DNA from: Styela clava
Taxonomy: Eukaryota
Reading direction: 5' to 3'
DNA: 64,000 nt
Assembly (NCBI RefSeq): GCF_964204865.1
Contig: NC_135254.1
Location: 21,318,199-21,382,198, forward strand
Shown: piece after piece, positions 6,037 through 25,862 of the stretch
Numbering within the stretch: position 1 is the stretch's first letter
How the letters are laid out: the number at the start of each line of letters is the position of its first letter
Program-made: the position numbers and the translations under genes
The notes under the pieces: model-generated
The model's database searches: none
Told to the model about the DNA's origin: nothing
The model's input: only the letters and a program-made list of their open reading frames with translations

Positions 6037-6171
6037 GCATATGGTCGAGATCTTCTTGAAGCGCAAGATTGGTGTAGAAAATATACATTATCAAATAATA
6101 TAAAGGATTTAAATCAAGCGTGGGATCTATATTATCATGTATTCAGAAGAATTACAAAACAACTGCCACAA
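6037..6171 (+). CDS. MTOR: mTOR (TOR kinase) exon, FRB domain
   Basis: Acceptor ttttttcag|GCATAT. Peptide [45 protein letters not shown] is near-identical to human mTOR AYGRDLMEAQEWCRKY...[22 protein letters not shown]. Donor CAA|GTATGT. Confidence 0.92.
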
Positions 6172-6910
6172 GTATGTATCATTTTTCGAGACAATAGGAC
6201 GAACGTCAAAATTTAAAAAAATAATTCAAAGAAATAGCTGGGTGCTCTTTAGGTTGGTATCTCATCATGGTGTGAAGTAATATTCCTCAAAAGTATTTCA
6301 ATTAAAATTTATAGTTCAAAAATTAAAAATATATGTTTTTGTCATTTATTTACAGCTTTATTAAGTTTCACACTTTTGGGTTAATGAAGCCCGCAAATTA
6401 TGATCTTAAAAGCTTGTATGAAAAAAACTAGATAATAAGACAAGTTATTTTGATATTCTGTTGCCGTCAATAGCTATTTTGTAATTGATTTTATTTTTGT
6501 TTGTGTGTTATGTTATGTTCATCGCTAACGGCAAGGGAACTAAGTCATGTTTCCGTGGCAGGCTGTAGAAACTCGGTTGAGATTAGCATGTGTACTATTT
6601 CATTAGTTCATGGTATTTTATTGTGCCTAGCCAAAATTATATCATATCTTAGGTTGAATGACCAACCTCGATCTAATCCAAATAATTTCTTGTATACTAT
6701 AGTAAGGAATTGAAGGTCCAGAAAAAGCCAAGTTTGAATTTGCTTTCGCACCAAGTGGAATGGTCTACCAACGACAGTTCCAGAATGAAAAATGTCATTT
6801 TAATCAATTGCAAATCGTTCATTTAGCAATGAACCATCAAAAGTTTAAAGGTCATCAAGTTATGACAAAGTACAATCTATATACCTATATTTTATCTTTT
6901 ATTTTTCCAG

Positions 6911-7085
6911 CTTACCACCTTAGAGTTGCAATATGTTTCTCCAAAGTTGATGATTTGCAATGATCTTGAACTTGCCGTACCAGGGACATATAATCCTAGG
7001 CAAAGTGTTGTCAGAATCAAATCTATCAACTCTACGTTACAAGTGATCACATCAAAGCAAAGGCCAAGAAAGCTCTGCATATTAG
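6911..7085 (+). CDS. MTOR: mTOR exon (FRB to kinase N-terminal junction)
   Basis: Peptide [59 protein letters not shown] versus human [59 protein letters not shown]. Donor G|GTGAAT. Confidence 0.92.
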
Positions 7086-7399
7086 GTGAATTTTGGAAGA
7101 AAATTTTGTAATATGCAACATTTTTAATAAATTTTTTATGTTTGACCCAGATAAAGAGCCATTATAGGTGATTGTTTTGGGAAACCATTCTGTGACAAAT
7201 AGTATACCAGCAATACTTCCACATACAGCGTATCTTGTGGTATGATGACAGTAGTGTAATAATACTTAGCATGTTGATACTTCAGGAAGACACTTGCCAT
7301 TGCACCTCTGATTACCCTGTGTGAATTCGCAAGGTTTGGATCTTGTGGTAGATAATTATGTGTGAGAAGATTACTGCATTCCTCGCTGCTGTATGGTGG

Positions 7400-7720
7400 T
7401 CCATGCATCTAACGTGACATGGGCAAACTACGACCCCCAAATGCGGCCTGTTGGGTAGTTCAATCTAACCCGCCTGATGCTGCCATAACCAAACTAAAAC
7501 CAAATTATGATGTTTTAGCTGAAAGCGTCGAAAAATTTGTTGAGATTGTGATTAAATTCAGTTTGGGCACAAGGCTTATTGTTTTCCACTTTTGTTTGGT
7601 AACACTGTAGATATTGTTCATAGACTATAACTCTCTATAACTTCACACTTACATGGCTCGCCAATCTAGATGGGCAAAATTTTGGCCCCTGGTGCAAAAA
7701 CCTTGCCCACCCCTGATCTA
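7400..7720 (+). repeat. Dispersed ~310-bp repeat, copy 1 (mTOR intron)
   Basis: Roughly 75-80% similar to 16210-16520 in the same orientation. Shared blocks: cctgttgggta.ttcaatct, gatgttttagct, ttgttttccacttttg, cacttacatggc, gggcaaaatt.ttggccc. Confidence 0.7.
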
Positions 7721-7872
7721 AACCAATGTCTGGTTCACTATTCCCATATCCGACTTGGATTGGTATCTGGCCGAGAGGCCACGTTTCGCCATATGATAAA
7801 GCTGTCTTATCGGCTTTCCCTCCACAGTATAAATAGAAAAATCTTATCCCATAACATATTGTTCGTTTTCAG

Positions 7873-8008
7873 GAAGCAATGGTAAAGAATATACATTCTT
7901 ACTGAAAGGACATGAAGATCTTCGACAGGATGAACGTGTTATGCAGTTGTTTGGTCTTGTTAATACTTTACTTGCTACTGATCGTACTTCGAGCAGAAAA
8001 AATCTCAG
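7873..8008 (+). CDS. MTOR: mTOR exon (kinase domain)
   Basis: Peptide [44 protein letters not shown] versus human [44 protein letters not shown]. Acceptor gttttcag|GA, donor AG|GTTTAC. Confidence 0.92.
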
Positions 8009-8313
8009 GTTTACAATTTTCTGATTTTTGTACATATGTGCAGGATATTGCCGTAAGCTTTTTTCCAACAAAGCAGGTTATTTGAATTGTGTCATGGTGA
8101 ACCATTATTGTAGAATATTTTTGATTTCAGAATTCGTGGTGACTGGTGACAGTTTTTCATGACGCTAATAATAGTTTTATAGATATAAGATATTGATGTA
8201 TAGATTCATTCAAAAAAATGAAAATGCATCTTGTTGGCGGCGACGGGCTCCAATATCGTTTTTGTAACACTAGGAGGCAGCATAGATTCATAATCTCACG
8301 CGTTAGTGGCCAC

Positions 8314-23238: not shown

Positions 23239-23246
23239 TATATAAA
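23239..23246 (+). promoter_or_regulatory. TATA box (TATATAAA) of the DDIT4/REDD1-like gene, followed by a short non-coding first exon ending at a donor near 23337 (AAG|GTGAAG)
   Basis: A consensus TATA lies about 30 bp upstream of a plausible leader exon. The intron acceptor tgtgtttag| at 23744 precedes the ATG at 23797. Confidence 0.5.
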
Positions 23247-23796
23247 CCATCTCTCGCATCCTTCGCCGGTTCAGTCGTCAATTTGAAAGCTGGTGCTCTG
23301 TCTCGTTGGAAAAACGTTTTCATTGTGGTCAAATAAGGTGAAGTTGAATCGCGAAGTATTTTAGTAGCCTGATTGGTAACGGTACCGTTATTGTCATTTT
23401 ACGAAATCATATAACTCCTCGGATAGCGAGATTGTCTCAGTGTTGCACTCCGTTCAGACTAATTTAAAGCAATCGACAATACCGGTACACTAATAATAGT
23501 TTATTCATATGTTGTACAGTAATTAGAGCAGGGAAATAAATCAGTACTTATATCTGCATATACTTGGTACAGGGTAATTTGTGTATGTGTATAAATTATA
23601 TCGGTCCGCTCTAGATCTATTTTTTCAACATATCACTTACTTGCAAGTTTCCTGATCGTTGGTGTGAATGCTTGTTTTACTGTTTTATAAATAACGATTA
23701 ACGAGTAATATTCACGGTGAACATACTTTTTGTATTGTGTTTAGTGCTTAACTTTACTGCTATATTTGTCGGTGAATCATACTCTGAAGACTTGAA

Positions 23797-24100
23797 ATGG
23801 CTTCCAGCGAGACTATTTCGAAGAACGAAACTTCTCTTCGCGAAATGATTTCGTCTTTCGTTCGCAAACCCACAAAGCAACAACGTAGAAAGCAAATTAC
23901 AGAAGCGGAGGCGCGCAAAAATCGTTGCACAAGGAAAACAACTAACATTGATTCGTTTTGCGACTGTGGACATAGTGATGTTGGATTTTGGGACAACGAC
24001 ATTTCAACTGACTCATTTTTAGAACTTTCTTCCGATGTATTACCAGTAGAAATAGACAGCATGGAAAATGGTACATACGACGGGATTTTAGTAGAAAACG
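23797..24100 (+). CDS. DDIT4: DDIT4/REDD1-like (RTP801 family) coding exon 1
   Basis: ATG-initiated ORF MASSETISKNETSLREMISSFVRKPTKQQRRK...ILVEN. Donor G|GTAAGC. Phase is consistent with the next two exons, which carry the RTP801 C-terminal domain. Confidence 0.7.
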
Positions 24101-24704
24101 GTAAGCATTTTTATTGTCAGTATAGAGTATAGACTATCAGAAATCCTGTGGAATTTAGTAGCAATTGGAATCAATCAGACCGGCCGAGTAGCCTTTATTT
24201 GCGATGTATTATTTTTCGTCACGCAGACAACTGATTCCGACATGTCGCATCGTCGAATGACGCAATACAGCAATATAACGTATTTAACTGAATTGAACAG
24301 GATTACGAAATTTTCGCGTCGATTGCGATCATTTTTTAAAAATTCGATTATATCTTAGAAACGCCGCTGTTGCGAAATTTCTCCCCATGGTGTGAGACAC
24401 ACAATACGATATCAGTAGCCGCCGATTTCGGTATAACCTGTCCCTCAATTCATTAATGCTGGCGATTAGAGGTTTGTTGAGTATAGACAATAACAAACAA
24501 TTAATTAAAATTACGCGACAGAAATTTGTGTTAATATTAATTACCGGCAATACATCTACATGTTTTGCCGAGCTCGATCATTTCATTACCTTGATAAAGA
24601 TTATCTACAACGTCAATGTGACCGGTATTTCAATAACCCATTAGTCGCTTAATAATTTATTTTCAAACATTACCGTAATTGTTCCATTTTATTTTATAAA
24701 TCAG

Positions 24705-24794
24705 GGAATCTTTGGAAAGATGAAGTTCGACGAAAATGTTCGATATTAACGAAGAATTTAGAAGAAAAATTGAAATCATCAGCTTCAGAACATG
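24705..24794 (+). CDS. DDIT4: DDIT4/REDD1-like coding exon 2
   Basis: Acceptor tataaatcag|GG. Peptide GNLWKDEVRRKCSILTKNLEEKLKSSASEH. Donor G|GTAGGT. The frame stays open only in the required phase. Confidence 0.65.
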
Positions 24795-25112
24795 GTAGGT
24801 ACCGTTTATGTGAGAAATTTCCCCCAAAAAATGTCTTGAATGCCCGATTTTTTTTCCCTGAGACATTTTTCTACAAACGATATGTGTTTCTAACTCCACA
24901 CACACTATGCTTGAATAGACAGAGGTAATGTATAGCGAATAATGAAATCTTTTTCATTAAATTGTTTCTTCTTGAAATCTCAATGAACGAAAAAATAATT
25001 TCAATAATTTGATCACCTGGCTTTTTCAGTTTCAGTCCACGAGTGTTTTACAGCCGCATCCAACACAAACTTTGCTGCAATTAAGACTAACAATTGCTTT
25101 CATTATTTTCAA

Positions 25113-25862
25113 GGTCTTGCGTTAAAGTTTCCCATTGATCTTCCTCATCGCCTAGCCAACAAAATCGTTGACACTGCTTCATCGGAACCATGCGGTTTAC
25201 GCGGCTGCTGTGTCAACTTACGCCTGCTTCATGAGGACATTGCTGGCGTGTTGATGACATCACAAGTAGGAGAGGGCCCAGTGTTTTCTGACGCACGATT
25301 AGAAAAATGTGCAAGCTGGCCGGAGGAGCCGCGAAAAAAGACAAATACCCACTTGAGTAATGCTGAGCGACCCGAATTGGATTTTAGACTTCTGCCGGAT
25401 ATGGATGCTACTTTGACAGAGCGTTTTTCACCGGATTTTAGTACGGACAGTGGGTTTGCTGATTCAGCGGAATTCAGACGGCCCATGCACCGACGTCTTC
25501 AACACTCTCTATCATCATCTGCGATCCCAATATTGCCAAGTTTATCAGCAGCTTCGAGGCTGCAAGTGGCTTGTGCGGACTTGGGTTGTTTAGATTTATG
25601 TGACTCTGATTCGGTTCCAACGTTTGAGTTGTATATTTACCTTGCTCCTGTCACATCTTGGTCATGGTGGGTTCGAAGATTATTTTCTTCCTCCCTAAAA
25701 GCAGGTAAAGGAGATTGTGACGCGCACAGAAATAAACCTAACTCTAATCAAAAAAACCTAAAATCACTTAACCTGATGCCGGATTTTACATTAGTCAAAC
25801 GAAAACTCTATAGAACACGTTCGAATTCACTCGAGGTGATTCGATGTCCACTTCCTAAATGA
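25113..25862 (+). CDS. DDIT4: DDIT4/REDD1-like terminal coding exon (RTP801_C domain); coordinates +/-1
   Basis: ...SSEPCGLRGCCVNL..., ...SVPTFELYIYL..., ...RRLFSS..., ...DFTLVKRKLYRTRS... align to human REDD1 SEPCGLRGALLDV / VPTFQLTLVL / QGLFSS / GFRVIKKKLYSS. Stop TGA at 25860-25862. Contains a roughly 100-aa lineage-specific insertion relative to vertebrate REDD1. Confidence 0.75.
   Translation, partial: GLALKFPIDLPHRLANKIVDTASSEPCGLRGCCVNLRLLHEDIAGVLMTSQVGEGPVFSDARLEKCASWPEEPRKKTNTHLSNAERPELDFRLLPDMDATLTERFSPDFSTDSGFADSAEFRRPMHRRLQHSLSSSAIPILPSLSAASRLQVACADLGCLDLCDSDSVPTFELYIYLAPVTSWSWWVRRLFSSSLKAGKGDCDAHRNKPNSNQKNLKSLNLMPDFTLVKRKLYRTRSNSLEVIRCPLPK

Follow-up and report, generated by a model that had tools for sequence, protein, structure and literature searches.

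The DNA analysed here is a window of 64,000 nucleotides from the ascidian Styela clava (contig NC_135254.1 of assembly GCF_964204865.1, positions 21,318,199 to 21,382,198), in which the 3' part of the mTOR gene is followed on the same strand by a gene for a protein of the RTP801 family, the family of REDD1/DDIT4. The G+C content of the window is about 35%, and its gene structure is animal-like and rich in introns. Using tblastn with mTOR C-termini, a splice-aware junction search and Pfam, we located the last 12 coding exons of mTOR at 6037-21102 on the plus strand (6037-6171, 6911-7085, 7873-8008, 13806-13953, 14153-14275, 15706-15861, 15939-16013, 18126-18261, 19310-19447, 19525-19608, 20685-20793 and 21087-21102). 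All introns found by the junction search have GT-AG borders, and the joined exons form an open reading frame (ORF) of 476 amino acids (aa) with the C-terminus ...CYIGWCPFW and the stop codon TAA at 21100-21102; a preliminary description of the locus had likewise given the last 12 mTOR exons and a CPFW-stop at 21102, in exact agreement with these searches. The product contains, in this order, the end of FRB, the full kinase domain and FATC (FRB_dom, 44 bits; PI3_PI4_kinase, 275 bits; FATC, 65.5 bits in Pfam). A 362-aa query made of the joined conserved exon segments showed 86% identity to the best mTOR matches, one of which (P0005) has a vertebrate-type ...CPFW C-terminus; the matches to mTOR were for the most part short fragments from transcripts, and none was a named mTOR of a tunicate. 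No mTOR exon was detected by tblastn in positions 1-6036 of the window. The intron before the first exon found must therefore exceed 6 kb, with the exon for the first part of FRB lying outside the window, more than 6 kb upstream; the segment 1-6036 has 31% G+C and holds short ORFs only. The 5.8-kb intron between the third and fourth of the 12 exons harbors a Ty1/copia-type long terminal repeat retrotransposon at 8314-12425, in which RVT_2, rve and gag_pre-integrase were matched by Pfam on the minus strand. Its coding region consists of three overlapping minus-strand ORFs (8543-10258, 10237-11706 and 11655-12236), and the flanking direct repeats (8314-8510 and 12229-12425, at least 197 bp) are 100% identical, suggesting that the insertion is recent.

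The downstream gene comprises three coding exons on the plus strand, at 23797-24100 (aa 1-102, a poorly conserved N-terminal region), 24705-24794 (aa 102-131, the first helix of the REDD1 fold) and 25114-25862 (aa 132-380 and the stop, containing the RTP801_C core as judged from Pfam, PDB sequence matches and a structural model). This is the sole combination of GT/AG sites that keeps the frame open from the ATG at 23797 to the stop at 25862, and it encodes 380 aa, not the 373 aa given previously. The product is 100% identical to the NCBI entry 'uncharacterized protein LOC144422757' of Styela clava, which confirms the gene model; the ORF at 23797 is thus exactly LOC144422757 and no part of a different gene model. 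With 57.8 bits (E 1.3e-15), the match to RTP801_C (PF07809) exceeds the gathering score of 27; it consists of two stretches, one on either side of an insertion. The precomputed database annotation of LOC144422757 is likewise PF07809, so that the RTP801-family identity proposed in the preliminary description was borne out by the hidden Markov model. As for the motifs cited there as diagnostic, SEPCGLRG and VPTFELYIYL are present as described, and the supposed KKLY reads KRKLY. In mammals, a surface patch of REDD1 formed by 138-EPCG-141 and 218-KKKLYSSE-225 (human numbering) is needed for function (PMC4183088, citing Vega-Rubin-de-Celis 2010). Both parts have counterparts in the Styela protein, namely EPCG at aa 156-159 (25185-25196) and KRKLYRTR at aa 360-367, with KRKLY encoded at 25797-25811.

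This is the only tunicate-type REDD1/DDIT4 orthologue detectable in Styela clava. A match at 31444-31527 was considered as a second RTP801 gene and rejected, being only the 3' tip of the gene within a segmental duplication. This tandem duplication spans about 4.5 kb at 78-82% identity (25809-30256 and 31477-36203). Since it begins in the last 54 nucleotides of the RTP801-like coding sequence, no more than the final ~17 codons are present in the second copy (31477-31527, ...YRTRLNSLEVIRCPLSK), followed by 3' untranslated region (UTR) and downstream sequence, and there is no second complete gene.

To place the protein structurally, an AlphaFold2 model was built from a 6-sequence alignment. Block means of the predicted local distance difference test (pLDDT) were approximately 69-89 in the core (residues ~101-175 and 281-310) and 83 for residues 351-360; the overall mean was just 54.9 because of disordered regions. 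The solved structures matched by sequence were human DDIT4 entries only, 7MOP and 3LQ9, and the only significant Foldseek matches in the PDB were 3lq9_A and 3lq9_B, that is, human REDD1 (probability 1.00, E 6e-6), with a template modelling score of 0.68-0.70 normalised to the target. These matches suggest that the two-layer alpha/beta-sandwich core of REDD1 is kept in the Styela protein, as predicted by the model. The Styela protein shares RTP801_C, the predicted core and the EPCG plus K(K/R)KLY patch with human REDD1/DDIT4 (3LQ9) and REDD2/DDIT4L, and in all of them the part of the protein N-terminal to the domain is poorly conserved. Identity to the human proteins is about 25-28%, and the Styela protein is much longer (380 aa versus 232 and 193 aa). 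It further differs in a conserved tail, RSRSNS.EVIRC, at the C-terminus and in an insertion of about 105 aa, predicted to be disordered, in the loop that joins beta1 to beta2.

When 1.84 billion representatives were searched exhaustively with HMMER, 61 significant relatives were returned, of which only the Styela protein itself and one other (P0002) scored below 1e-30. The best matches outside the stolidobranchs were Ciona and Clavelina proteins at 66-67 bits, and DDIT4L clusters were matched at about 44 bits. The closest relatives outside the stolidobranchs are those of Ciona intestinalis (LOC100186509), Ciona savignyi (H2Z576) and Clavelina lepadiformis (LOC143455858), which have 220-224 aa against 380 in Styela and share with it the tunicate-specific C-terminal tail KRKLYRSRSNS.EVIR; none of the aligned members from vertebrates or arthropods showed the extension RSRSNS.EVIR. 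The Ciona gene has three coding exons in the same layout as that of Styela, with a 31-aa exon as the counterpart of the second exon. Although the Styela, Ciona and Clavelina orthologues all match PF07809, they are labelled 'uncharacterized protein' at NCBI, and our literature searches found nothing relevant on REDD1/DDIT4 in ascidians or Ciona. From its family membership, the Styela protein most likely inhibits target of rapamycin complex 1 (TORC1) upstream of the tuberous sclerosis complex (TSC), the functional model assumed being that of fly scylla and charybde, invertebrate RTP801-family growth inhibitors that act upstream of TSC.

The mTOR stop codon and the ATG of the RTP801-like gene are separated by 2,694 bp on the same strand, and neither a Pfam-matching ORF nor an Rfam family was found in this spacer. 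As far as the sequence allows this to be tested, the two genes are immediate neighbours with nothing recognisable in between, and the tail-to-head arrangement at 2.7 kb stands as originally described. We compared the locus with those of other tunicates, starting from the RTP801 side only: a contig termed L001, a Ciona intestinalis locus (L002) and Clavelina lepadiformis loci (L003/L004); word-indexed searches gave 2 proteins with the RTP801 query and 6 with a tunicate profile, and added no stolidobranch locus from Botryllus, Molgula or Styela plicata to the comparison. P0002 is encoded on L001, a 7,987-bp Logan contig. By tblastx, L001 is co-linear with the window, containing mTOR exons (at approximately 96-176, 624-776, 1358-1456, 1856-1957 and 2215-2328, the gene ending in ...CPFW* at 2404-2424), a 3.1-kb spacer and RTP801 exons in the same order and orientation. 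Its RTP801 model has 369 aa in exons at 5504-5795, 6300-6392 and 6520-7244, the first two being the homologues of the first and second Styela exons; the intron positions are those of Styela, and the proteins are 48% identical. Synonymous sites are saturated between the two (proportion of synonymous differences, pS, 0.82-0.91), indicating that the species are deeply diverged. L001 originates from run SRR10746996, one of the runs SRR10746995-99, for which the deposited sample type is a shotgun metagenome from the stool of Halocynthia roretzi (PMC7807810), and this sample origin suggests that L001 is most probably host DNA of H. roretzi (Pyuridae).

The linkage was absent elsewhere in the tunicates compared. 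Within 10 kb of the RTP801 orthologue, tblastn found no mTOR exon in either Ciona or Clavelina, and the neighbours there are unrelated genes (DSPc, Myb_DNA-bind_7 and Pirin in Ciona; FG-GAP, FAM167 and Tcp11 in Clavelina). The synteny check in relatives called for by the preliminary description thus gave a divided answer, with the pair kept on L001 and not within that distance in Ciona or Clavelina. In human, MTOR maps to 1p36, DDIT4 to 10q22 and DDIT4L to 4q24, so that both REDD genes lie on other chromosomes than MTOR, unlike the Styela gene. Drosophila Tor is on 2L and scylla and charybde, a tandem pair of paralogues, are on 3L, again not beside the kinase gene. The presence of the linkage and of a long loop in Styelidae and probably Pyuridae, and their absence in the phlebobranch and aplousobranch species tested, point to a stolidobranch feature that is not ancestral. 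No report of a stolidobranch mTOR-RTP801 linkage was found in the searchable literature.

We examined the spacer by a motif scan and blastn. The region 21103-23238 on the plus strand consists of a presumed mTOR 3' UTR followed by sequence that cannot be aligned with L001. Poly(A) hexamers occur 0.2-0.55 kb past the mTOR stop (ATTAAA at 21299, AATAAA at 21652 and 21756), and equivalent hexamers are found about 0.29 kb past the mTOR stop of L001. The sole block aligned by blastn is about 67 bp long (23151-23217 versus 5017-5086 of L001) and weak, at 70% identity; it lies directly upstream of a TATA box, TATATAAA, at 23239-23246, about 0.55 kb upstream of the ATG. The positions previously given for the TATA box (23239) and the ATG (23797) were both correct. 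Block and TATA box together (23151-23246, plus strand) form a putative core promoter of the RTP801-like gene. L001 has AATTAAAA at an offset from the aligned block similar to that of the Styela TATA box, and plausible splice sites for the 5' UTR come next in both species. A single FOXO-type motif, TTGTTTAC, is located at 23112, just upstream of the putative promoter span; the counts of hypoxia response element, FOXO and ATF4 motifs upstream of the RTP801-like gene were indistinguishable from chance. Apart from the promoter-proximal block of about 70 bp, no conserved non-coding element was found in the spacer between Styela and L001. The pattern of the spacer fits two genes with separate signals.

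The insertion that splits the RTP801_C match lies at 25242-25553 on the plus strand (aa 175-278), between strands beta1 and beta2, and was assessed from alignments, pLDDT and the proportions of nonsynonymous (pN) and synonymous differences. The roughly 100-aa insertion noted in the preliminary description proved real: the Styela loop has about 105 aa more than that of human REDD1 and about 90 aa more than those of Ciona and Clavelina. The distance from beta1 (CCVNLRLLHED in Styela) to RLQVACADLGCLDLCDSDSVPTFELYIYL is approximately 20 residues in human REDD1 and 35-40 in Ciona and Clavelina, which have only a stretch of about 15-20 aa at the insertion site. Across residues 181-280 the pLDDT was below 50, so that the loop is predicted to be disordered. 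It is nevertheless present in frame in P0002, at 50% identity and with several invariant blocks (CASWPE.P; LDFR.LPD.D.TLTE.F.PD.S.DSGF; LP.LS.ASRLQV), and its pN between the two species is 0.35 as compared to a saturated pS of 0.82. Among the 61 relatives, only P0001 and P0002 (272-380 aa) are long enough to accommodate such a loop, the others having 139-280 aa, with the exception by length of one 2,769-aa protein that matches via a different, short stretch. A further RTP801 protein, P0198 (321 aa, on a 1.1-kb contig), has an insertion shorter than that of Styela. The possibility that the loop is an unrecognised intron was ruled out by the NCBI model, the in-frame copy in the second species and a pN of 0.35 against a saturated pS of 0.82. 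The Styela loop contains DSGFADS at 25446-25466 (aa 243-249), and P0002 has DSGFGEIS. Mammalian REDD1 is reportedly degraded via a beta-TrCP-containing ligase (PMC4183088), and these sequences resemble DSG-type beta-TrCP phosphodegrons, a lead from a short motif only. Taken together, these observations newly define, in stolidobranch proteins, a form of the REDD1 fold with a conserved loop that is predicted to be disordered.

The remainder of the window holds further features downstream. What is apparently the next protein-coding gene, an endophilin-like gene about 27 kb downstream of the RTP801-like gene, has exons at approximately 53160-60650 on the plus strand, including a BAR-domain exon at 54435-54755 (Pfam BAR, 70.7 bits) and an SH3-like exon at 60314-60649, whose SH3_9 match of 20 bits is below the cut-off. 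A 72-bp minisatellite is repeated 22 times at 42063-43677 and recurs, inverted, in two shorter arrays (47887-48024 and 50913-51816); these arrays account for strong GC- and AT-skew excursions in the corresponding 2-kb bins. Two minisatellite units form the start of a 353-codon ORF at 47828-48886 on the plus strand, which resembles by eye a fragment of a non-LTR reverse transcriptase (FADD motif) and has no Pfam match at E<=0.001.

We consider it probable that the pair represents a chance, lineage-specific rearrangement that has been retained, and that the protein acts in trans as other REDD1 proteins do. There would then be two independent genes arranged head-to-tail, mTOR and behind it an RTP801-family gene apparently with its own TATA promoter. 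The Styela protein would most likely be an inducible TORC1 inhibitor working in trans upstream of TSC, as in flies and mammals. Its beta1-beta2 loop, expanded to about 105 disordered residues, would probably add regulatory contacts or turnover signals through its conserved short motifs. The adjacency itself would have arisen via a rearrangement in the stolidobranch ascidian lineage and would then have been retained in Styelidae and, probably, Pyuridae, most likely because a spacer of 2-3 kb is a small target for breakpoints and not because of coupling in cis. A rough estimate of our own, assuming that between some tens and about 100 of roughly 17-20 thousand genes belong to the TOR pathway, puts the chance of a pathway member on a given flank of mTOR at about 0.5%, which is low, yet not remarkable for a feature picked by scanning many windows.

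Several points weigh against this explanation. The order of genes in tunicates is reportedly scrambled to a high degree even within families (PMC12448946), so that it is not trivial for the pair to be kept in one orientation and at similar spacing. The survival of this one pair across two families is at least compatible with selection on the arrangement, and read-through, shared enhancers or transcriptional interference may be at work. In addition, the species assignment of L001 was inferred from the sample description and not from a marker gene, and it is on the strength of its family that the tunicate protein is taken to inhibit TORC1.

The alternative that ranks second after the retained rearrangement, and which we regard as unlikely, is that the pair is a selected cis-regulatory unit in stolidobranchs, either sharing a chromatin domain or enhancers, or having mTOR transcription run through the downstream gene with interference or read-through. 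Both products belong to one pathway, and order, strand and similar spacing (2.7 versus 3.1 kb) are kept despite saturated synonymous sites, in a group with extensive scrambling of microsynteny (PMC12448946). A selected unit would, however, sit poorly with a spacer that is unalignable save for about 70 bp beside the TATA box, with poly(A) signals close behind the mTOR stop, and with the unlinked state of the pair in Ciona and Clavelina. It is equally unlinked in human and Drosophila. Simple co-expression is also hard to reconcile with the situation in other animals, where mTOR is expressed constitutively and REDD1 is sharply induced by stress. The read-through or shared chromatin regulation raised in the preliminary description may occur, as a possibility only. 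A stronger joint claim, that stolidobranchs possess a fixed cassette of mTOR and a REDD1-type gene used in cis and that the 105-aa loop with its phosphodegron-like DSG motif gives new control of turnover, appears more doubtful still; in such a cassette, transcription through the mTOR terminator would set the basal level of the inhibitor, or a stress-responsive chromatin domain would be common to both genes.

A tunicate-type operon, with mTOR and the RTP801-like gene transcribed into one polycistronic precursor that spliced-leader trans-splicing would then separate, is very improbable. Tunicates do have spliced-leader trans-splicing and operons, and the two genes are co-directional with nothing recognisable between them, but intercistronic gaps in Ciona operons are roughly zero to 100-200 bp, and the 2,694 bp found here, like the 3.1 kb of L001, go far beyond what an operon of that type would allow. 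The gap is neither very short nor absent, and within it lie several poly(A) hexamers and, beside a block that is partly conserved, a TATA box, so that the downstream gene does not appear to lack a promoter of its own. Finally, the view that the RTP801 copy is decaying or non-functional, with an insertion of unspliced intron or junk and a pairing devoid of biological content, could draw on the predicted disorder of the insertion, the GT and AG dinucleotides near its ends and the partial duplicate of the 3' end of the gene 5.7 kb downstream, but is largely refuted, and hardly credible, given the intact 380-aa ORF equal to the NCBI model, the intact 369-aa ORF with the same exon structure and insertion in a second species, and the constraint on the insertion (pN 0.35 versus saturated pS 0.82, several invariant blocks).

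Among known arrangements, the retained pair resembles the conserved microsynteny pairs of metazoans in that co-directional neighbours are kept between diverged species, and differs from them in being kept within one ascidian order only, as far as tested. The linkage is real, and it is a lineage-limited curiosity without demonstrated regulatory meaning. The gains are modest and leave the understanding of TOR signalling unchanged: the proteins labelled 'uncharacterized' in Styela, Ciona and Clavelina find their place in the REDD1/DDIT4 family, their functional patch being intact, the stolidobranch members are seen to have a conserved loop, predicted to be disordered, that is specific to their lineage, and the linkage to mTOR is found restricted to one ascidian order and not ancestral. 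Should the linkage prove functional, a signalling kinase would be held together in the genome with a stress-induced inhibitor dedicated to it, a case that is rare in animals and would be testable in experimentally tractable ascidians.

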